DNA of 64,000 nt, from positions 62,001 to 126,000 of the forward strand of contig AP039693.1 of NCBI GenBank assembly GCA_051599415.1. Direction: 5' to 3'. Made by a program: the position numbers and the translations under genes. This DNA comes from Savitreella phatthalungensis. Its lineage: Eukaryota. Each line of letters begins with the position of its first letter. Within the stretch, counting starts at the first letter, position 1. Shown piece by piece: positions 684 through 51,433 of the stretch. The notes beneath the pieces were generated by a model, which ran no database searches, was not told the DNA's origin, and saw only the letters and a program-made list of their open reading frames with translations.

Positions 684-3600
684 CTACCATGTCAGATCCA
701 CCTGCTCTGCTTTGACAAAGCTAACCAGGTCTTCTTCATTTGCCACTAATTCGTCCTGCGCCTGCTTCCGCTTAAAGAAGACATCGCAATCCATATTTGT
801 GCACAGTATCTCTCGCTTCGACCGCATGCAGTCGTGGCATGTCTCCTCGAGTACCCGCTTTCGTGCTCTGCAAGCCGTGAATCTCTCAAGCTTTTCGTTG
901 GCCCGGGAATGAGCCTGCGAAGAGTGCTTAGCGCAAAGCTTTCGCCCCGTCTCGCATGTGTCTCCACACATGTCACAACGCGCTAGAGACTTCTTGCCTG
1001 CACTCAGAAAGGCGCCCATTACACCAGCAGACTTGACTGCGACCTTTGTCTTGACAGTGCTTTTGAATAAGGCTTCTATTTCCTTTGCCGGCAGGAACAG
1101 CTCCAGGATGCGTTGTAATGGATTATGCACTGTGTGGTCAACGTAGTATTGGTAGTCCAGCAGCAGACCCTTCTCGATAGCGTACACAGGATCCTCTGCC
1201 TTCTCAAAGCCCTTTGAGTTTGGAGCAGCTTGAATGAAAACGTAGCTGATTCGCTCTCCATCCTTGAAGACGAGGCCGGAATCACGACCGCGCATCTTGT
1301 CAATCACAGAAATGTGTGGCTGCTTGCCGCTGTAGTCCGCCGCCTCGCTACCCAGCCACAGACCCTTAGTCATGATGAAATTGCCGACGTCGAGCTCGCC
1401 ATTCAATATCTGGCCGACTGAGCCCTTGACGCTTTGCTTGACCCTCTCGATGATGACCGCCCGGTCCTCCTGACTGATCTTCTGATCTGGTCCGTTGTTA
1501 CGATCCTGTGGGAAGAGGATCTGCAGAACATCGCCAATGACCTTGCCGACAACGGGAACAGCATCTCGACGGTTGGCTTCAATGCCTTTGATATCAATCT
1601 CGCGTGGCGAATCTGCCGTCGTCCAGAGGAGGCCAGCGTAGCGCTTTCGATTCTGCAATAGAGATGGGAATAGGACCTTTTCAAACTCCAACTGAATGGG
1701 ATCGGGCCAAACCTCACTAACCTCTCGGCTGATTCGCTCCCCCATTTCGATAGCCTCCTTCACAGACTTGCCGAAAAGCTTCACGAAAACAGAGTCTGTG
1801 TCGCCGTACACAACTTCACAAACATCGCGAAGGCCTTCCGAATTGTAACGCCGTTCAATTTCCTGCTTGACGAGCTCGAGCATAGCAGCGCCTTCAGAGA
1901 TTGTCCCGTCCGCAATGGCGAGGTTCTGTAATCTTGATTCTCGTGCGCCCATAAATCCATAGACTGCATTCGCCACAACTTTCAGAGCGCGTTGACGCCC
2001 GTCGAGCACGGTCTGAAGAGACACATCCTGAGTTTGTTTCATGAGCTGTCGAACTCGCGCCCGTTCTGCCAGGAAATGCTTCAAAATCGCAGGCACGACG
2101 CCCTCTTTGACACTTCGATCCACAAAGCGGGCACCACCGAATCCTGTCCAATGAGGCTCTTCAATGGATTCGTTACCCTGCACTTCGGTAGAGAAACAAA
2201 GATTCCGAGCAATGAGAATCGATGGGTAGAGTGACTTAAAATCGAGAACAATGACGGGATTTTCGGTGTCGTAGCCCGTCTGAGGCATATAATTCAAGGC
2301 ACTCTGCGTCATCTGCTCACCACCTCGTGACCAGCCGGGGACGATAACTCCACGCTTACCACAGAAGCGAAATAGTTGGGACCAGAAGCGACGCATCTGA
2401 CCTCGAGAGACGACATCTTCGAAATTGAGACCTGTGACACGTGACAGCTCGATGTATGTAACGAGTGACGCGTGCCGACGCAGCAAATTCAAATTTGCCC
2501 AAAGCTCAGCGAAGACGTAGTCTGCAAAGCGGGTGCGCTCTCCATCATCTTTGCTGGCATACAAGGATGCGATCACCGTGTCACTCAACTTTTCCAGCTT
2601 GCGTCCGCCAATAGCTTCCGAAGTCTCGTGGAGGCTGTACGTTCGGAGACGTTCTTCGCGCTCTATCACAGTGCGCAAGTCAAGTATAAGGCGGCCGATA
2701 CAGCCCAGCTCTGTATGCTCGCGATTTGAAGTGGCAGCCTGCAATCGCCGCTCCTTTCGCAGTGATGAGCTGGTGTATATTTGCCGACATTTCGTTTTCA
2801 ACGGTGTATGAGAGCAACGCGCTAGATTGATGTAGTCCTTGGGGGCGCCAAGCTCTAACGCGCGCATCATGATTGTCGGGAGAGCCTCGGATGTGATGTC
2901 GTAGCCAGAAACAACGTCTGGATCATACTCAAGCAAGATCTTGCGAAATGCCTCGAGCATAACTAGTTCGGTGGCGAAATGTATTACCCGAGCGCCTGGT
3001 GTGATGTCGAGGCTTGTTGCGAAATCGCCTCCATGCACCAGCATCAAAGACTGATCATCGTCAGAAGCTGTCAGAGGACTCGTTGTGAGTCCCAGACTGA
3101 TGGCTGCCACGAAAGGACCTGGTCGAGAAGTAGCCATCTTCTTTGGTGATGCTGTGATCTTTGACGTCTTCCCTTTTTTCGTTGTTGCCGACTCTGTTGA
3201 CCCGTTCTTCGCTGCAGGCTTGATCGGACCCGAAGGGTCCACAGTCAAGGCTGTCACGATCATACATCGCATCGGCGCAAGCTTCGACCACTCGGCAGTC
3301 TTCTCGTCGTTCGTTTCATTGGAATTTGGGGAGAGACCGATAAGTTTGCTGAAATCACGACATTCGAAAACACCAGACACCCGCTCGTGCGGTGCTATCG
3401 AAGGCAGTCTTTTGTATGCTCCTGACGGAACTTTGACCCAGCCGCATCCCACCAGACCTAGATCGGTCATGAAGCGCATGTCGTACGACAAACCAGTCTC
3501 ATACACCTGGCTTGAATAGAGCTTACCGGCATTGAAGAGTGTGATAAGCTTGGCGAGCTCATCGCCTTTTGACAGCACATTGGCGATTGGATTAATATCT

Positions 3601-4010
3601 GTTGGCTTTTCGACAAAAATCTGGACGTATCGCTGATACCGCTCCGGGTTACGACGATAGTATTCCAGCGGCTCTCTCTCGACGAAGCGCAATTCCGATA
3701 TGGCAACCGGCGTTTTGACATTAGACTCGATCCCTGAACGTAGCACATCGAGATCTGCCTCGGAGAAGTTCTCAGTCACCGGGAAGTAGATGTATTGTCG
3801 AAAGCCGCGCACAAGCAAGATTAGCGAGTGACCATCCTCCGATAGCCCATGCAGTCGAATCAGTGATGCATCACTATCTGCTTTGTCCTTCGATGCATCT
3901 TCGCATTCAAGCAATTGGAACACGAGATCTTGGGAATGCGCATCATGTTCCCATGATGGACGCGCAAAGTTGTTGAAGTCAACATCATCTCTCTTACGCT
4001 TCATGGTCAT
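684..4010 (-). CDS. Family B DNA polymerase, diverged Pol delta catalytic-subunit-like, predicted exonuclease-dead
   Basis: Intronless 1108-aa ORF. Motif A VLDFKSLYPS, motif B RQRALKVVANAVYG, motif C YGDTDS. Delta-type segments LEFEKVLFPSLLQNRKRYAGLLWT and KQPH...AEDPVY...YY. C-terminal CysA-like (CDMC...CAKH) and CysB-like (CHDC...CTNMDC) motifs. N-terminal KRKR NLS-like stretch. Confidence 0.9.
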   Translation of the reverse strand: MTMKRKRDDVDFNNFARPSWEHDAHSQDLVFQLLECEDASKDKADSDASLIRLHGLSEDGHSLILLVRGFRQYIYFPVTENFSEADLDVLRSGIESNVKTPVAISELRFVEREPLEYYRRNPERYQRYVQIFVEKPTDINPIANVLSKGDELAKLITLFNAGKLYSSQVYETGLSYDMRFMTDLGLVGCGWVKVPSGAYKRLPSIAPHERVSGVFECRDFSKLIGLSPNSNETNDEKTAEWSKLAPMRCMIVTALTVDPSGPIKPAAKNGSTESATTKKGKTSKITASPKKMATSRPGPFVAAISLGLTTSPLTASDDDQSLMLVHGGDFATSLDITPGARVIHFATELVMLEAFRKILLEYDPDVVSGYDITSEALPTIMMRALELGAPKDYINLARCSHTPLKTKCRQIYTSSSLRKERRLQAATSNREHTELGCIGRLILDLRTVIEREERLRTYSLHETSEAIGGRKLEKLSDTVIASLYASKDDGERTRFADYVFAELWANLNLLRRHASLVTYIELSRVTGLNFEDVVSRGQMRRFWSQLFRFCGKRGVIVPGWSRGGEQMTQSALNYMPQTGYDTENPVIVLDFKSLYPSILIARNLCFSTEVQGNESIEEPHWTGFGGARFVDRSVKEGVVPAILKHFLAERARVRQLMKQTQDVSLQTVLDGRQRALKVVANAVYGFMGARESRLQNLAIADGTISEGAAMLELVKQEIERRYNSEGLRDVCEVVYGDTDSVFVKLFGKSVKEAIEMGERISREVSEVWPDPIQLEFEKVLFPSLLQNRKRYAGLLWTTADSPREIDIKGIEANRRDAVPVVGKVIGDVLQILFPQDRNNGPDQKISQEDRAVIIERVKQSVKGSVGQILNGELDVGNFIMTKGLWLGSEAADYSGKQPHISVIDKMRGRDSGLVFKDGERISYVFIQAAPNSKGFEKAEDPVYAIEKGLLLDYQYYVDHTVHNPLQRILELFLPAKEIEALFKSTVKTKVAVKSAGVMGAFLSAGKKSLARCDMCGDTCETGRKLCAKHSSQAHSRANEKLERFTACRARKRVLEETCHDCMRSKREILCTNMDCDVFFKRKQAQDELVANEEDLVSFVKAEQVDLTW

Positions 4011-4236
4011 GCCAGATAGTGCTTTTTGCTGTCATCGTTTGACAAATCCCGGAGCCCCCGAGTTCCGACCTCGCACGTTACTGATGAGACCTAGTTTGGG
4101 CCGACGTCATAAACCAATTTAGCTCTCGGAGCATGCACTGCATGTGGACATAATTAATTGATCAGAACCATGCATGCGTTTCTTCATACGTACGTACGTT
4201 TGTCCCGCTTCGCTGCCGCAGCAACGACACGTTGAA

Positions 4237-5043
4237 CTAATTTAGAGTCTCTTTGTCATAGTCAATGTTGTGCTTCGCGTCCCTGCAAGTGCTGCTGCCA
4301 GTACTTGTGCTACCTCCGCGACAGATGCCTGACGTCGGCCGCCAGAGGAGGCTAGGCAATTCTTCCACTACTGCACCATCCTCATCCCTGATGATGGTAG
4401 GTACGTTCAGGTCTTCGAAACCGACATGCATATAGACGGGATAGCCGGCCTCGGAGGATTCAAGGAAGAGTGGCAGTCCTCTTGACATCCCGTGCTCGAG
4501 CATTGCCTTGCCTACTCCGCGACCCTGTGCTTCGGGCCTGACAGCAAGCCAGGAGACGTAGGTGAATGTGCCTACGGGTGGCTCGAGCTGTTTAAGAATG
4601 GGAAAGTTCGAGCGCAGAACTGCTCCAATCAGGTGGTACCGCTGTAATGCGACAGCATTGCGTTTGCAGGCAGCCTTGCCTCGCAATGTATCGTGGAAAA
4701 AGTCTATCGTGGACTGCCACCACGCGTGGCAAGAACGCAGAAGCCGTTCAAAGAGCGATCGCTGCACTGGACTAGCAGTTCTACCATCAGCGAAAACGGT
4801 AGTGAATTGACAGTAACCCGCGAACGGGAGATCGGGCAATTCTGCCACAAGAAATTCAGTTTCTCCCCTGATGATATCCAATCGCTGAGATCGCGCGAAT
4901 TTGCGTTTGAAAGACTCGTGATCGGCGCCCTCGAGCCACCATCTATTCAAATGTGAATCACCGAAAGCGTCGTACCAGGCTTGCGTAACATCCTGGGCAT
5001 CTGTTGGTCGAGCCGCACGCAATTTGACCCCAGACGATGTCAT
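4237..5043 (-). CDS. GNAT-family N-acetyltransferase
   Basis: N-terminal LRAARPTD; acetyl-CoA-binding motif LAVRPEAQGRGVG; LESSEAGYPVY..VGF, typical of fungal GNATs. Confidence 0.85.
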   Translation of the reverse strand: MTSSGVKLRAARPTDAQDVTQAWYDAFGDSHLNRWWLEGADHESFKRKFARSQRLDIIRGETEFLVAELPDLPFAGYCQFTTVFADGRTASPVQRSLFERLLRSCHAWWQSTIDFFHDTLRGKAACKRNAVALQRYHLIGAVLRSNFPILKQLEPPVGTFTYVSWLAVRPEAQGRGVGKAMLEHGMSRGLPLFLESSEAGYPVYMHVGFEDLNVPTIIRDEDGAVVEELPSLLWRPTSGICRGGSTSTGSSTCRDAKHNIDYDKETLN

Positions 5044-18155: not shown

Positions 18156-20003
18156 ATGTCTATTAGGGTCATCGACGACAATAGGCTGTCTGTGCACATT
18201 AAAAGAGAGGTTCTTGATGTTGATACGCAGGATATGGTGATTGAACTCAACGACGAGGATGCTGATGAGGAGAATCTTCAAGTCAAAACGATCAGGGGAC
18301 CGATTGTTCAGACGCCGCGAAAAGCTGTCAACCTGCACAGACCATCTCTGCCAGACTTTGCTGAGTCGACGACGAGATATGAAGCGACGAACTTCGATCG
18401 TGAGCAAAATGCACGTGATGATGCAAGACCGAGACACTTACCGTCGGCTTTCGACACAGCCAATTCGTATGTCACTCAACGACCGGCGCTGCTGACGTCG
18501 TCTCTTCTGCCCGATGGGCAAAATTGCAGGCAGGCGGACAACGTCATGACACAGAAATCGACATATGACGCAAGCGATAGCTGCCGCATCCATGAGTCTG
18601 CTCCATCGTACGTTGTGTCAAATACGGCAGCGCAATCCTCCCGTTGGGAAAAGATCCTTCATCACGACGAAATGGAACACAACATCTATTTGCTAAAATT
18701 GCAGCAAGACAATTTGCAAAGTCGGAATGAGTCTTTACAAAGTCAATGTGCAGAGCTTAGCAACCGAGTAATGATGCTCCGTGACGACGAAGCGCGGATT
18801 TCGAATCAACGTTCAGATCTCGAAGGAGATGTCGATCATCTGCGACGTGCAAAATCCGACTTGATCTCTGATATCGGGAAACTCCGAGAGGAAAAGCTGG
18901 ATCTCAACTGTGACGTTGCGCGTGCTCGGTCGGCACTGCGAGACAGCGTTCAAAATTACAAACAGGTCCGCTTAGCTTTGCAAGAAGTTGCAGCGAAGTC
19001 ACCGGGTCCTGAACAGCCGTCTGCCTCTATCATTGACGCCCCGGAAAATGCGAAGATATATCCCTCACCAGCGACAGAGCCAGACTATGTGAAGTCACCG
19101 GCAAGCAAAGCGCATTCCGTTGCTCCTTCGAAGGATGTCGAGCATGCAATCGCTGTTGGCACGAAAGATTTGGCGAATACTCAGTCGTCATATTTGAAAA
19201 GATCAGCTGCTGTGAATGCCAATGCACGCATGAAGCGGCAATCAAAGGAAGCGCATCAGCTACACCTAGCCGACCGCCGAGGCCAGTCCGATCGAGAGCT
19301 TCTCGACGAACTAGAGGAGGAAAAGGCTGCGCCAGACCTTCCGGCCGCGGAACGAAAGTATCGCGGAAAGCTGGACCGCCTAGAGTCGGAGCACTTACCA
19401 GTCCCGCAAGATTGTGCAACGACAGCGGCATGGACCAAGCTGTTCAATACTCTGCAAGTTAACACTCACTTGGATGATCACCATCTATATCGACACGCCA
19501 GTCTGTCTGGTGACAAGGAGGTTATTCAGATGATGAGCCCTCCACATATCATGATTGAACCCGGTCAGGATTATTTCGCACAAGTCGAACGTGTGCTCAA
19601 GGGCCTTCCAGACGTTTTACAATTGGGCTGCGGTCGCGAGGGGTTCGTTGCACGAATCAGCAGCAATTGTTTCAAAAGTATCCTTTTACATCGTTCGGTA
19701 CCCTTCAAAGAGCTGGCCAGCGTTTCGAGACCCGTCGGCCAGTGGATCACTTTGCACCCACGCGTGCCATCGGATGTTCCTGCAACTCTACCTTTCGATT
19801 CTGGCATCGAGAAATGGATCTCGAAAATGAAGGTCGACAAATCTCTCACCCAGGGTGGAGGAACTTGGCAGTTGCGTTTCCGCCTGCGTCATAACGCTGC
19901 TGTGGCGCTGAAAAGCTTCTTCATGGACGGTTACGATCTCGGTCTGACAAAGCGATGGCGCGCTGATTTCGACGAGTTCAATCAACCTTTTGCCACCGCC
20001 TGA
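18156..20003 (+). CDS. Hypothetical protein with central coiled coil
   Basis: 615-aa ORF; heptad-periodic region LQQDNLQSRNESL...LEGDVDHLRRAKSDLISDIGKLREEKLDL; no recognised domain. Confidence 0.7.
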   Translation: MSIRVIDDNRLSVHIKREVLDVDTQDMVIELNDEDADEENLQVKTIRGPIVQTPRKAVNLHRPSLPDFAESTTRYEATNFDREQNARDDARPRHLPSAFDTANSYVTQRPALLTSSLLPDGQNCRQADNVMTQKSTYDASDSCRIHESAPSYVVSNTAAQSSRWEKILHHDEMEHNIYLLKLQQDNLQSRNESLQSQCAELSNRVMMLRDDEARISNQRSDLEGDVDHLRRAKSDLISDIGKLREEKLDLNCDVARARSALRDSVQNYKQVRLALQEVAAKSPGPEQPSASIIDAPENAKIYPSPATEPDYVKSPASKAHSVAPSKDVEHAIAVGTKDLANTQSSYLKRSAAVNANARMKRQSKEAHQLHLADRRGQSDRELLDELEEEKAAPDLPAAERKYRGKLDRLESEHLPVPQDCATTAAWTKLFNTLQVNTHLDDHHLYRHASLSGDKEVIQMMSPPHIMIEPGQDYFAQVERVLKGLPDVLQLGCGREGFVARISSNCFKSILLHRSVPFKELASVSRPVGQWITLHPRVPSDVPATLPFDSGIEKWISKMKVDKSLTQGGGTWQLRFRLRHNAAVALKSFFMDGYDLGLTKRWRADFDEFNQPFATA

Positions 20004-24343: not shown

Positions 24344-25519
24344 TTATCTGCTCCAAACATCCTGCACGCCTCGACTACCGATGCTGCCGCTGCCAAAGCC
24401 AGTATCATGACTCGTGGTTGGACTGACTGGTGCAGAGCCGGATAGCGGAATCTGCTGCTGCAGCGGCTGGTGGTGCTGTTGGAATCGTTGTATGGGCTGC
24501 TGGAAGTGACTGTAGCTGCCGATACCGAACCACGCATTGCCATCGTCATTCATGCCGGAGAGACGCGGAACGCCACTGTGCAGAGAGTCGAAATCGTCGT
24601 CGTGGAGACCGAAAGCATGCTCCTCGCTACCATCCTCGGTAGCTGAAGATCGCTGGCGATGGAGAGAGGCGAATGCCGGGTTGTTGTCAGTAGCTGCTGG
24701 TGACTTGAGCGAACCTCCTCCCGTCGCACTCGGTCGACCGATAGGAGCAAGACGCGGCGGCGTTCCAGTTGGAGCACCCCTGGAAGGACCTGAGAAAGAA
24801 GCAGATCTGACGTCGCCTGAAGAAGCTGATCGCTCTGCCGAAGCGACTTCCTGACATCCAAACAGTGAATAGCCTCCTGTGCCCGTGCCCGTATCAGATG
24901 CCAGTGAAAGCGAGCGAGAATGAGTCGCAGCAGGCGCGTGATCCGTGGCGCCCGGAACAGAATGACGGAAGGTCACATGAGCGGGGGAAGCGGGGGACAT
25001 GGGAACGAATATACTGCTGTTTCCACTGCTCGACTTGGTTCCAGCTTGCTGACTCTGCGAAGAGAGGGAACGCGACTGATTGGTCGAGTTGGAAGAGGTC
25101 GATTGGGATGATCGCTGATTGTAATTCTGCTGCTGCAAGGCTGAAGCTCCAAGATTCGCTGCAACGGGCGCTGCAAAGGGAGACGCTGGTCCAGTAAACC
25201 TCATGTATTGGCCTTCGCGATATAGCGACTGCTGCTGCTGTAGGATACGCGGAGTAGGACCCTGAGTTTGGAGCTGTGATGGTGGTGTGTAAAAGGTGCG
25301 TTGCGAGGGCTGAGCATAATATTGGTGACGCTGTTGCTGTGCCTGCTGAGGTAAATAGTATGTCGAGTGAGCGACGTGCCTGTGTAGCTGAGGCTGAAAG
25401 ACCGGTGCGGTAGCATGGAAGCTACTGGCAGGCTTTTGCTGGCGGCCTAGTCGTGCGAAGGCTTCGATCGCGCGATCGACTTCCTGAAGCTGCGCGGCGA
25501 AGGGATCGCTCGGCAGCAT
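24344..25519 (-). CDS. Low-complexity Q/S/P-rich hypothetical protein
   Basis: Long ORF with disordered composition; first ATG at 25519 (MLPSDPFAAQ); short motifs GGYSLFG, PIGRPS and DVWSR. Confidence 0.65.
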   Translation of the reverse strand: MLPSDPFAAQLQEVDRAIEAFARLGRQQKPASSFHATAPVFQPQLHRHVAHSTYYLPQQAQQQRHQYYAQPSQRTFYTPPSQLQTQGPTPRILQQQQSLYREGQYMRFTGPASPFAAPVAANLGASALQQQNYNQRSSQSTSSNSTNQSRSLSSQSQQAGTKSSSGNSSIFVPMSPASPAHVTFRHSVPGATDHAPAATHSRSLSLASDTGTGTGGYSLFGCQEVASAERSASSGDVRSASFSGPSRGAPTGTPPRLAPIGRPSATGGGSLKSPAATDNNPAFASLHRQRSSATEDGSEEHAFGLHDDDFDSLHSGVPRLSGMNDDGNAWFGIGSYSHFQQPIQRFQQHHQPLQQQIPLSGSAPVSPTTSHDTGFGSGSIGSRGVQDVWSR

Positions 25520-27085: not shown

Positions 27086-28339
27086 TCAAAAGTGCTTCAG
27101 AAGGACGCCAGCCCCACGTGACTTCGCAACTGATGGCGGGATACGGCGATTCTTTCGATGCAGGTCTTCGAGAAGTTCTGTCACGCTGTTGTAGCGCTGA
27201 ATCTTATTCATAATCTTCAGGTCCTCCAAAGGCTGGCCGGTCAATCGATCACAAGCTGACAGGTAGTCTTGAATATTGACGCAGGCGTGACTGGCCAGCA
27301 TCTGCTTGAGCTTTTTCACGCTCGTCGGCATGATGTCGATCATATCAGGCAGCAAGTGCTCAAACACCGTGGCCAGCTCCTCATAGCGATCGAACTGATG
27401 GACTCCATATCTCGAAGATGGTTGCTGTCCTTGCCAAGACCCGGCAGTTGAAAAGTTTTTAGTCTTCGAGACCTGTGAGGCATTGGTGTTACGCTTCAGC
27501 TCGACCTTGACGAATTGCGCCTCTTCGTCAGAATCGCCCTGTGTATCTGTGAACGAGCATTTCGAGAATAAAGTCTCGATATCATTACCACGAATCTTGT
27601 CTCTCCACGCAAGGTCTCTGCCTGGAAGTAAGTCGCCGACCAGTTCATACCTGAAGGGCTGACGCATCATCATGTTGTGGAAATCACGAACGTCTGTGAA
27701 CTTGGTAGATGATCGGCCAATCAGAGAGCACAACTCAGAAGCAAGACGACGTTCTCCGGGGAGAGTCTTCAAGGTGCAGAGCCGACTGGACTGTTTGAAA
27801 GTCAGCCAGTACAGCTTTGGCAGACATTCATTTAGCGGTAGAGGCTTGTCCCACCCGAGCAACTTGAGCAAACGCGAATACTGCATGACCTTTGCCTCAT
27901 TCCGGATGACCTCTGGGAAACTGAGGTATCCGTCTTCATAGCTGTCAAGTCTAACTTCGGAAGCGCTCAGCTTTGTGCAGATCAAGCTCAGTTGAGCGCA
28001 CTTGACGGGAGACATGTTGGACGTGGGCTCTCCGCCGACTAGATGACAGATCAGATCTTTCAGAATCAATATAGCTGACTGTACCTCGTCTTCGTAGACA
28101 TCGCAGCTTGTCAGACCATAACGCTTAGACCATGTGAGCGCATCCAGGATGTCTTGGGCTTGCTGGACTGCGTCAAACTCTGTGTGATTGCAGATCGCGT
28201 CGTCCAGTGAGAGTGCGAATCGGGTCAACTCTCCAAACGGAACTGTAGGCCACGGAGTCACTGTGCATTTGTCACGGAAGTGAGCAAAATCCGATTCCTG
28301 AAGAGCTTTTGTAGGAGACTCGTAGCCTGTGCGCGGCAT
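27086..28339 (-). CDS. Hypothetical protein; C-terminal domain shared with the 40476..42451 gene
   Basis: Long ORF (first ATG 28339). C-terminus HLLP...PTS...L...VNIQDYL...RYNS..EL...P...GAGVLLKHF. Confidence 0.7.
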   Translation of the reverse strand: MPRTGYESPTKALQESDFAHFRDKCTVTPWPTVPFGELTRFALSLDDAICNHTEFDAVQQAQDILDALTWSKRYGLTSCDVYEDEVQSAILILKDLICHLVGGEPTSNMSPVKCAQLSLICTKLSASEVRLDSYEDGYLSFPEVIRNEAKVMQYSRLLKLLGWDKPLPLNECLPKLYWLTFKQSSRLCTLKTLPGERRLASELCSLIGRSSTKFTDVRDFHNMMMRQPFRYELVGDLLPGRDLAWRDKIRGNDIETLFSKCSFTDTQGDSDEEAQFVKVELKRNTNASQVSKTKNFSTAGSWQGQQPSSRYGVHQFDRYEELATVFEHLLPDMIDIMPTSVKKLKQMLASHACVNIQDYLSACDRLTGQPLEDLKIMNKIQRYNSVTELLEDLHRKNRRIPPSVAKSRGAGVLLKHF

Positions 28340-49072: not shown

Positions 49073-51433
49073 ATGCTCGGTCAAACCGCGTCACGTCCTC
49101 CACCGCCGCCTATCCGGCGTAAGCCAGTGCCAGTTCTGGGAGAAATCACTGAAGACGACGACGGCATCAGTGTGCATACTGTCAAAGTGAGTGATGATAA
49201 GCCGCCGACTCAGTCAGCCTATCACGCTATCGACCCAAACGCGTCAGAGTTCGTGCGCACTCACAGCATGCGCGATAGACTCAATCGCTTCTTCAACGGT
49301 AGGTCGAGTACGCGTCACTCAAACGTCAATGACGGAGAAGTATCTGGTGCTCATGTTGGTCGAGTGCGCTCTAGCAGCTTTGGCAGCCGGCTGATCAAGC
49401 GTTCAAATTCTGAGCCGGACACACACGCCGATGTCGAGCTCGATTCCGGTGATCTTGCCATCCTCGTGTCACAGATGGATCTGTCTGCTGATCAACGGGT
49501 CACGGGTCTGCTCGCGCGACAGACGACATCTGATGAGACGATCAAACCGTCGAAAACCACTCAGCAGCAGGACTCGCAAGTCACGACAACAGCAAATTCG
49601 AGCTCAGAGCTAGATCGTCAGGTGGCTAAACAGCCACGGGGCATGCGCAGGCCAGACCAGCTTCCGCGTGAGCAACCAAGACCTTCCTCAACTCAGCATG
49701 AAGCGGTAGTCAAGCAGCAAGCGCATCAAGATCACGACTTTGATGGTATTGACGCAGACCATGACGAGTTACCTGACAGCCCGGCGAGTATGTATCCGCT
49801 GGCGTCAGAAGCCTCGTCATCTGCCTTGCTCGGCAATAATACTCGCGGCAGCAGCATCGTCAACCACAACGGCAGTGGACCTATAGCGCAGCGTAACAAG
49901 ACGGACACCCCTACGATAGGTCAGACACTCTGGCCGATCAAGGAGAAGATCACCATCCGCGCTAACGTTCATGGGGGCCTTGACATCTACAGTGCAGACA
50001 ATCAACTTCTTTATATCGCCCGCTATCAGCCTGTGGTACCCGGCCAGGGCGAAAAAGGCGCAAAGCCGCAGATCGCCATGTTCCCAGTGGATCGCAGCAA
50101 GACCCCAGCATTCATTGTCGATAGGTCGATCGGGGATGCAACCGAGCATCTGTACGGTCCTCGGCACAAGCACCTTTCCCAGATGGTGCTCCTGCGCGGT
50201 GTGGCTCCGCTGTCCTTCGAATGCCGCAGGGCAAGCTCTCTCCGACCAGTGCCTTGTTTCGACGTTATTCCCGCACGGATCGCCGCTATACAAGAGGAGC
50301 AGCGACTTCTGCAGCATGCCCAAGCTGCAGCGGCACAATCTCGTGCTTCTTTGCCGCCACCAGGTCGGCCGCGCCAACAGGCAGCCTTCTCGCAGCGTCA
50401 AGATGCCTCGCTGTTTGCTATGCCGAAAGGCGACACGCCACAAGCGTCAGAAGCAGGTTCAGTCGTCTTCTCGCACGCCTGTGTGGCTAGCAGCATCGCT
50501 GCAGCCGGCCTCGCAACCGCGCAGCCGGACCCACCATCTGAGTACCATTACCAACACCGTCGGCCGGCTCTCAGCAGAGCAGATCCTTCTCTTTACAGCG
50601 CTACCGGTGGTGCGCTGACTCTGTCCGGTCAAGCCGGCACAGGCTCTCCTGCAGACTCACGGACGACATTGAATGGCCAAGCACCATCACCACACAAAAG
50701 CACGGCTGAAGTGGCGTACGCGCGAGCAAACCTCCAATCCCATGAATTCACTCGCGGCTCGCCGGGCGGTGTACAGCATGCCAGACTATCTCACATACCT
50801 ACCCGTGCAGATGAGACTGCACGGCTGCGAGCCGCTCGCCTATCTGCGCTGTTCGAGGACGTCCAGTACGCTGGCGAAGCTGAGGATATCGCAACCGACC
50901 GCCAGCGCGCCGCACAAAGCAAAGTCCAAGCCTTGATCGACACGCCACCTGCAGCCGCTCCCCACACCTTTTCACGCACCTCTCGCGCAGTCGGCACCGC
51001 CGGCTCTCGCTCCGGCACCTGGACGACAACAACAAATGACACAGGTGTACCACTGGACCGACTTCGTCTCGCGTGGAAGCGGACGTCGGACGCTGGCCTG
51101 GGCGGTACGAAGCTCGTCGACCTGGACGATGGCGAGGTTCTGGCATACTTCATTCCGCGTGCTGCAGCCTCACGACGTCGTCCGTCCCCTCTCAACACCC
51201 GCTCGTCGACTACCTGCCACTCGACGCCTTCACCCGCAGCAAAGCACGATGCTCACCTGCGCGGGCTGTGGAAGGCAGCTGCGCAGGTGGAGAGGAACGA
51301 TGCGCTCGAGACAGAGGGGCTTGTTCGTGGCAAGGTGATTGCAGAGATCAAGCTTCAAGGCACCGGATTGAGAATGGCTAAACTTATCACCGCAGCAGCC
51401 ATCGCCACGCGACTTTCCCCAGACCTCTCGTAA
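49073..51433 (+). CDS. Hypothetical, largely disordered protein (may extend upstream to 48575)
   Basis: 786-aa ORF; PPIRRKPV motif; short globular-looking segments near the middle and the C-terminus. Confidence 0.7.
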   Translation: MLGQTASRPPPPPIRRKPVPVLGEITEDDDGISVHTVKVSDDKPPTQSAYHAIDPNASEFVRTHSMRDRLNRFFNGRSSTRHSNVNDGEVSGAHVGRVRSSSFGSRLIKRSNSEPDTHADVELDSGDLAILVSQMDLSADQRVTGLLARQTTSDETIKPSKTTQQQDSQVTTTANSSSELDRQVAKQPRGMRRPDQLPREQPRPSSTQHEAVVKQQAHQDHDFDGIDADHDELPDSPASMYPLASEASSSALLGNNTRGSSIVNHNGSGPIAQRNKTDTPTIGQTLWPIKEKITIRANVHGGLDIYSADNQLLYIARYQPVVPGQGEKGAKPQIAMFPVDRSKTPAFIVDRSIGDATEHLYGPRHKHLSQMVLLRGVAPLSFECRRASSLRPVPCFDVIPARIAAIQEEQRLLQHAQAAAAQSRASLPPPGRPRQQAAFSQRQDASLFAMPKGDTPQASEAGSVVFSHACVASSIAAAGLATAQPDPPSEYHYQHRRPALSRADPSLYSATGGALTLSGQAGTGSPADSRTTLNGQAPSPHKSTAEVAYARANLQSHEFTRGSPGGVQHARLSHIPTRADETARLRAARLSALFEDVQYAGEAEDIATDRQRAAQSKVQALIDTPPAAAPHTFSRTSRAVGTAGSRSGTWTTTTNDTGVPLDRLRLAWKRTSDAGLGGTKLVDLDDGEVLAYFIPRAAASRRRPSPLNTRSSTTCHSTPSPAAKHDAHLRGLWKAAAQVERNDALETEGLVRGKVIAEIKLQGTGLRMAKLITAAAIATRLSPDLS

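Follow-up and report, generated by a model that had tools for sequence, protein, structure and literature searches.

The 64,000-nucleotide window analysed here (Savitreella phatthalungensis contig AP039693.1, positions 62,001 to 126,000) carries on its reverse strand, at 684..4010, a single uninterrupted open reading frame (ORF) of 1108 codons plus stop, beginning with ATG and free of internal stops. Its product is the catalytic subunit of a family B DNA polymerase that is delta-like but has no proofreading site (Table 1). Pfam assigns residues 530-970 of the product to DNA_pol_B (E 4.7e-102) and matches only the C-terminal half of the exonuclease family (8.6e-17, residues 333-462). Orthologs of this protein occur in other fungi and share its loss of the exonuclease carboxylates; we refer to the window protein and these orthologs together as clade X.

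Table 1. Coordinates in the window of the polymerase ORF, its domains and motifs, and the region upstream.
Feature	Residues	Window position	Strand	Remark
Whole ORF		684..4010	-	Catalytic subunit of a delta-like family B DNA polymerase; no proofreading site
Basic stretch KRKR	4-7	3990..4001	-	Putative nuclear localisation signal, a presumed role
N-terminal domain	1-245	3276..4010	-	Contains family-specific motif FQLLECEDASKD
Exo I remnant APMRCMIVTALTV	245-257	3240..3278	-	Asp and Glu replaced by T253 and L255
Exonuclease-like domain	246-530	2421..3275	-	Predicted to be folded and catalytically dead
Lys/Ser/Thr/Pro-rich insert after Exo I strand	~258-299	3114..3239	-	Variable in the family, absent in Protomyces
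Exo II remnant GYDITSEA	369-376	2883..2906	-	Canonical GYNxxNFD
Exo III YVFAE	498-502	2505..2519	-	Canonical YCLKD; Y498 kept, catalytic Asp replaced by E502
Polymerase domain (palm, fingers, thumb)	531-985	1056..2420	-
Motif A LDFKSLYPS	589-597	2220..2246	-	Canonical; catalytic D590, and Y595
Motif B KVVANAVYG	677-685	1956..1982	-	A682 in place of delta Ser; family signature
Motif C YGDTDS	735-740	1791..1808	-	Canonical
Thumb signature GLWLG	883-887	1350..1364	-	W885 shared only with plant/protist proofreading-dead groups
PIP-like (PCNA-interacting-peptide-like) motif GVMGAF	996-1001	1008..1025	-	From MAFFT alignment; candidate PCNA contact
CysA	C1012, C1015, C1026, H1029	924..977	-	Putative zinc module
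CysB	C1058, C1061, C1070, C1075	786..839	-	Putative Fe-S module
Upstream intergenic region, 226 bp		4011..4236	-	No ACGCGT; ATGACGT at 4104-4110

In both sequence and predicted fold the window protein is closest to Pol delta, and far nearer to it than to Pol zeta. A phmmer search of the PDB matched it to human Pol delta (POLD1; 2.5e-118, 400 bits) and yeast Pol delta (1.8e-117, 397 bits) over the N-terminal domain and residues 338-1095, as against 1.7e-53 and 185 bits for yeast Rev3, with a match confined to residues 626-1091. An AlphaFold2 (AF2) model built from a 45-row alignment reached a mean predicted local distance difference test (pLDDT) score of 87.6 and a predicted template-modelling (pTM) score of 0.88, with disorder only at residues 1-7, 263-293 and 988-1008, and the top folds returned for it by Foldseek were Pol delta structures (1.9e-69 to 3.4e-64, TM 0.71-0.89, or 0.79-0.89 for the nearest, 26-28% identity), followed by herpes simplex virus polymerase (~1e-50) and then Pol zeta (1.2e-47), at 16-17% identity. 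These comparisons bear out an earlier sequence-only reading of the locus, which had called the protein delta-like rather than Rev3-like, and the strings quoted in that reading are all present (APMRCMIVTALT at residues 245-256, GYDITSEA, YVFAE, LDGRQRALKVVANAVYGFMG, RYAGLLWT, KQPH and EDPVY). A look-up of the window protein in a protein atlas returned only generic family B clusters. The N-terminal KRKR is common to the Taphrina and Protomyces orthologs. Within the insert that follows the Exo I strand, a KTSKI core is kept in four Taphrina-like sequences, and chytrids carry other low-complexity sequence there.

To place the exonuclease motifs, we used an accurate MAFFT alignment that set the window protein beside 13 relatives, one Pol zeta and 11 sequences of canonical Pol delta. 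At Exo I the canonical FDIEC has become IVTAL, leaving no acidic residue in the motif, as the sequence-only reading had noted; T253 and L255 stand in the carboxylate columns. At Exo II, A376 occupies the column of the catalytic Asp, with E375 adjoining it and D371 at the former Asn position. The four exonuclease carboxylate positions thus read T253, L255, A376 and E502, and three of the four are lost. Exo III is conservatively changed, not degenerate: its Tyr is kept in 15/15 family rows, and the acidic position is Glu in eight, Asp in six (five named chytrid or blastoclad members and row P0239) and Gln in one. The earlier claim that all three proofreading motifs are degenerate accordingly stands for Exo I and Exo II and fails for Exo III, where the Tyr and an acidic residue remain. 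Both Exo I carboxylates are gone in all 14 family rows that cover the motif, which, together with the open frame, upholds the earlier description of an intact 1108-codon ORF and a conserved gene without proofreading carboxylates. These motif changes are not chance, because the DNA_pol_B match is as strong as given above and the same changes recur in orthologs. The exonuclease-like domain is predicted by the AF2 model to be well folded, and its identity to the Taphrina deformans ortholog is 62% (over residues 311-530), compared with 61% for the N-terminal domain, 73% for palm and fingers, 70% for the thumb and 52% for the tail; the presumably dead exonuclease domain is thus conserved as structure.

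The polymerase active site presents a different picture. Motifs A and C are canonical in 13/13 family rows covering them in the 26-row alignment, and the earlier statement that the polymerase motifs are intact is correct for these two. It has to be amended at motif B, where the Ser is changed to Ala (A682), a position that holds Ser in delta and Val in zeta. One may speculate that this change, in paralleling zeta, hints at a more permissive active site.

The C-terminal tail retains the Cys modules, and a candidate for the PCNA motif, through which delta-type catalytic subunits meet their partners. In the parts of PMC7048817 drawn on here, a one-turn helix of human p125 that precedes CysA (1001-GLLAFA, residues 1001-1006) plugs into PCNA via L1002 and F1005, and the CysB of human Pol delta holds an Fe-S cluster and, with two flanking helices, docks the p50 B-subunit; docking of the B-subunit by the Fe-S CysB module is described for both delta and zeta in the portions used of PMC7048817 and PMC7544198. 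In the MAFFT alignment GVMGAF of the window protein aligns with GGLLAF of a rodent POLD1 row, a segment corresponding to the human motif, placing M998 on L1002 and F1001 on F1005, with the HMMER register two positions off, and the AF2 model draws a short helix (residues 997-1006) over the PIP-like motif inside a low-confidence linker. Six of the Cys residues (C1012, C1015, C1026, C1058, C1061 and C1070) lie in columns that are at least 90% conserved in the 45-row alignment. In one row, P0017 from Spizellomyces sp. 'palustris', three of the four CysB cysteines are missing in the alignment, in contrast to the rest of the family; this could reflect a real loss or a fault in the gene model or the sequencing.

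Homologs were sought with word-seeded searches using the whole protein (15 proteins), with the polymerase domain, and exhaustively with HMMER against 1.84 billion cluster representatives. Whole-protein identity was 70% for the closest relative, 62% for T. deformans and 44% for Saitoella complicata, and a further protein matched 86% of the query at 62%. On these matches the window is DNA of a Taphrina-like fungus. Over the polymerase domain identity was 63% for Protomyces lactucae-debilis, 49% for Spizellomyces, 48% for Paraphysoderma, 47% for Gonapodya and 44% each for Rhizophlyctis and Cladochytrium. All these clade X members stood above canonical Pol delta, whose sequences from animals, fungi, plants and protists reached 35-39% over the polymerase domain and 28-32% overall. 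In the HMMER step full-length members of the clade scored 519-974 bits, as against 437 for the best canonical delta, and a partial Borealophlyctis protein was a further member. Clade X was thus found in Taphrinomycotina (Taphrina, Protomyces, Saitoella), in several chytrid orders and in a blastoclad. Its members are annotated automatically in databases as 'DNA polymerase' or 'DNA polymerase delta catalytic subunit', and Table S2 of PMC7544198, as far as that source was drawn on, has those of T. deformans, Protomyces, Saitoella, Spizellomyces punctatus and Gonapodya as 'PolBmain' only.

For phylogeny we hand-picked 51 rows (12 of clade X, 7 fungal and 11 other canonical delta, 4 zeta, 14 other delta-like rows lacking the Exo I carboxylates, and 3 distant sequences) and trimmed their alignment to 927 columns, each occupied in 80% or more of the rows. 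A quick LG+C20 tree with posterior mean site frequencies (PMSF) recovered clade X as one clade with a Shimodaira-Hasegawa approximate likelihood ratio test (SH-aLRT) value of 100, and fungal delta (98) nested in opisthokont delta; zeta sat on a long branch, and the base was formed by zeta, delta and the group holding clade X, unordered and unrooted. A careful LG+C20 tree was built from 35 of these rows over the same 927 columns, leaving out 16 (3 distant, 3 isolated proofreading-dead, 4 dinoflagellate, 2 of clade X, 2 delta, 1 zeta and 1 of the group called G3 below). Its ultrafast bootstrap (UFBoot)/SH-aLRT values were 100/100 for clade X, 99/99 for the canonical delta crown and 99/97 for fungal delta, and within clade X the branching broadly matched the fungal groups. 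A tree of the polymerase domain only (416 columns) gave 100 for the delta crown and 96 for clade X outside it, and in four trees in all clade X fell outside the canonical delta crown. Most likely, then, clade X belongs neither to canonical Pol delta nor to Pol zeta as sampled here, and is old and vertically inherited.

These trees bear directly on the sequence-only reading's proposal of an extra delta paralog, that is, a lineage-specific copy of Pol3, and on the similar idea of a recent, fast-evolving fungal Pol3 duplicate that lost proofreading within Taphrinomycotina. Such a duplicate would account for the best sequence and fold matches being to Pol delta and for a length and domain order like those of Pol3, and fast-evolving duplicates can be drawn out of their true clade. 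However, chytrid and blastoclad orthologs share both the lost Exo I and the motif B Ala, clade X lies outside the delta crown in each of the four trees, and a tree constrained to unite it with fungal delta is worse by 122.6 log-likelihood units (lnL) and is rejected by an approximately unbiased (AU) test (p 2e-35). The paralog proposal is therefore not sustained in that form, and we regard a Taphrinomycotina duplicate as unlikely.

A family B tree had itself been suggested in that reading as a check; the one made here, from delta and zeta rows, keeps the protein out of fungal delta and rejects an exclusive grouping with zeta (18.7 lnL, p 0.006), and it is unrooted. The suspicion that this might simply be the lineage's Pol zeta (Rev3) ortholog, short and slowly evolving, draws on the inactivated exonuclease, the CysA/CysB tail and the non-Ser residue in motif B, all as in zeta, on a first FastTree that placed clade X next to the single zeta row, and on the unrooted relation of delta, zeta and clade X. 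Against it stand the AU result just given, the weak and partial match to Rev3 as compared with delta, and the spacing of the domains. Zeta has a long insertion between its N-terminal and exonuclease domains that carries Rev7-binding motifs. In the window protein this insertion is missing, and its Exo I strand begins with residue 247, compared with 276-336 in canonical delta and 729 in zeta row P0008. In addition, Table S2 of PMC7544198, within the part drawn on, holds for Protomyces lactucae-debilis and Gonapodya prolifera a second protein that looks zeta-like by eye: that of Gonapodya carries RGSQFKVES and GYEIHNASWGYL, where zeta rows have RGSQFKVES and zeta row P0008 has GYEVHRGSWGYL, and that of Protomyces carries the zeta-like N-terminal motif MIDYNLYGC. 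In these two species clade X thus appears, from such sequence motifs, to be additional to zeta, and its identification with Rev3 seems to us improbable.

The setting of the gene is that of an ordinary fungal locus. Its neighbours encode a GNAT acetyltransferase, a fructose-1,6-bisphosphatase, a GDP-mannose pyrophosphorylase, an F-box/WD40 protein, a DEAD helicase and a cyclin; the DNA around it is gene-dense and of fungal type with no composition anomaly seen, and the GC content of the ORF (0.51) is similar to that of the remainder of the window. This matters for the idea that the ORF is a pseudogene in decay, encodes a scaffold without catalytic activity, or was captured from a giant virus. 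Viral family B polymerases are close relatives of delta, according to the portion of PMC7544198 drawn on. On the other side, the frame runs unbroken for 1108 codons, the family retains every catalytic residue of the polymerase site, the tree of clade X, built with delta, zeta and delta-like rows, broadly follows the fungal groups, the tail is of the cellular CysA/CysB kind, and neighbours and composition are unexceptional; we hold this set of explanations to be very unlikely. The readings rejected are a pseudogene and a viral capture, on these grounds, and a recent Pol3 duplicate, on those given above.

Upstream of the polymerase the next gene, at 4237-5043 (-), encodes a 268-aa GNAT-type acetyltransferase (Pfam Acetyltransf_7, 3.2e-06), and 226 bp separate its stop codon from the start of the polymerase ORF. 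The MluI cell-cycle box (MCB), ACGCGT, is typical of yeast replication genes. None occurs in the 226-bp region upstream of the polymerase ORF, and across the 64-kb window 16 such sites were observed against 15.1 expected. A single ATGACGT heptamer, which we take to be CRE/M26-like (CRE, cAMP response element), lies on the reverse strand ~95 bp upstream of the polymerase ATG, possibly by chance. The missing MCB box and the lone heptamer could be at most weak hints to the polymerase's role. Elsewhere in the window seven ORFs of 385-786 codons each have no Pfam match at E 1e-5 (18156-20003, 24344-25519, 27086-28339, 36987-38306, 40476-42053, 49073-51433 and 61590-62747).

Loss of the Exo I carboxylates extends beyond clade X. 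They are missing in 32/249 covering rows of the exhaustive HMMER search, and 14 of the 32 belong to clade X. Two further sets of such sequences are G2, comprising Amorphochlora amoebiformis (a chlorarachniophyte), Platysulcus tardus (a stramenopile) and an MMETSP transcript, and G3, comprising Chlorokybus atmophyticus, Auxenochlorella protothecoides, the fern Adiantum capillus-veneris and two further records (P0242, P0214, P0271, P0232, P0218). Their identity to the window protein is 26-30%, and Exo I is degenerate in both; G3, like clade X, keeps CysA and CysB. In the 35-row tree G2 and G3 join clade X at 99/98, and a tree that unites G3 with green-algal delta is worse by 99.9 lnL (p 1e-73). 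In the 51-row alignment the motif B Ala is present in 19/19 rows of the three groups and in 0/32 others (28 with Ser, and Val in the 4 zeta rows), and 18 of the 19 also have the thumb Trp (in GLWLG, ALWMD or GLWRV), the remaining row showing a gap, as against 0/32 others. Against this union, clade X, G2, G3 and delta all arise from a single polytomy in the polymerase-domain-only tree, and no aligned Cys tail is present in the two full-length G2 rows. Two G3 rows were marked by the tree program as unusual in amino-acid composition. G3 swaps the first Asp of motif C, with YAQTDS, YGHTDS or YCQTDS for YGDTDS, so that its polymerase activity is in question.

It is possible, though we put it forward only tentatively, that clade X and the green-plant and chlorarachniophyte/stramenopile groups constitute one ancient lineage, a fifth eukaryotic multi-subunit family B polymerase and proofreading-dead sister of delta and zeta, which would predate the split of fungi, plants, Rhizaria and stramenopiles and would have been lost repeatedly, including from all classical model organisms. 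Such repeated loss would explain why a fifth lineage had gone unnoticed.

Other delta-like rows without the Exo I carboxylates keep the motif B Ser: those of dinoflagellates (P0197, P0150, P0153, P0178, P0208), P0154 from Anaeramoeba, which is named as intein-containing, and P0171 from Flabellula. In the 51-row tree these fall inside or beside canonical delta, and the dinoflagellate group adjoins the alveolate Vitrella within delta, so that the dinoflagellate loss looks like a separate event. Proofreading in delta seems to have been lost more than once. These same proteins lend some colour to the notion that the window protein is its genome's only delta-type polymerase, a divergent replicase without proofreading, for they too are delta-like and lack the Exo I carboxylates. 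However, canonical delta sequences from Ascomycota, Basidiomycota and Zoopagomycota form a tight clade, so the fungal ancestor had a canonical delta; and since clade X split before the delta crown diversified, Taphrina would need a secondary loss of the canonical enzyme. Pol delta is essential. A sole replicase of this kind is, in our view, highly improbable.

We conclude that the window protein is probably a distinct delta-like family B polymerase of the old clade X, nuclear, polymerising without proofreading on PCNA and the delta B-subunit, and serving repair or lesion-tolerant synthesis. In such a scheme the enzyme would enter the nucleus; its CysB would dock the shared B-subunit Pol31/Cdc1, with Pol32/Cdc27, as in delta and zeta; the PIP-like motif would give it the use of PCNA; and it would synthesise DNA without proofreading, extending mismatched or damaged primer ends or acting in repair or recombination-associated synthesis, beside canonical Pol3 and Rev3. 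Several points weigh against this conclusion. The docking of the B-subunit, the use of PCNA and the kind of synthesis are all deduced from motifs. E502 and E375 stay near the old exonuclease site, so that residual activity is possible, and the Pfam C4 polymerase zinc finger (zf-C4pol) scored 23.3 bits, under its cut-off of 28.9. The 51-row alignment was made with MAFFT in its fast rather than its accurate mode, and its zeta rows are all from Pezizomycotina (4 of 120 in the 51-row tree, 3 in the 35-row trees); owing to this narrow sampling the zeta branch is long and the relation of delta, zeta and clade X unrooted. Clade X and its allies are themselves on long branches, and the AU tests share the model's long-branch pull.

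Textbooks recognise alpha, delta, epsilon and zeta as the four family B polymerases of eukaryotes. The same four are counted in a 2020 survey (Kazlauskas et al., PMC7544198), the passages of which drawn on here name no fifth group; Table S8 and the subgroup assignments of that survey lie outside those passages and could bear on novelty. Our literature searches for a delta paralog or a fifth family B polymerase turned up no description of clade X, a result that holds for those searches alone. The family is apparently old, present also in chytrids, green plants and some protists, and undescribed. A conserved fifth catalytic subunit, if real, would add an enzyme to the known machinery by which eukaryotes maintain their genomes. 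Pol3 and Rev3 could find in it a competitor for Pol31/Pol32 and PCNA, and such competition could shape the mutation rate or damage tolerance of plant-pathogenic Taphrina and of chytrids. The link to plants and protists, if true, would also alter the inventory of polymerases reconstructed for early eukaryotes.

Compared with known systems, the window protein resembles Pol delta (POLD1/Pol3/Cdc6) in domain order, in length, in motifs A and C, in the CysA/CysB tail and perhaps in the candidate PIP-like motif before CysA, and differs from it in lacking the Exo I carboxylates and the Exo II Asp, in the motif B Ala and thumb Trp, and in the disordered basic insert after the Exo I strand. We know of no family B polymerase of the giant-virus type with the cellular CysA/CysB tail; this tail and the ordinary fungal neighbours set the window protein apart from that group. 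With Pol zeta (Rev3/REV3L) it has in common an inactivated exonuclease, the CysA/CysB tail and an altered Ser position in motif B, in contrast to the long insertion before the exonuclease domain, which it lacks. In functional terms Pol zeta, a non-proofreading polymerase that shares the accessory subunits of delta, would be its nearest analogy.

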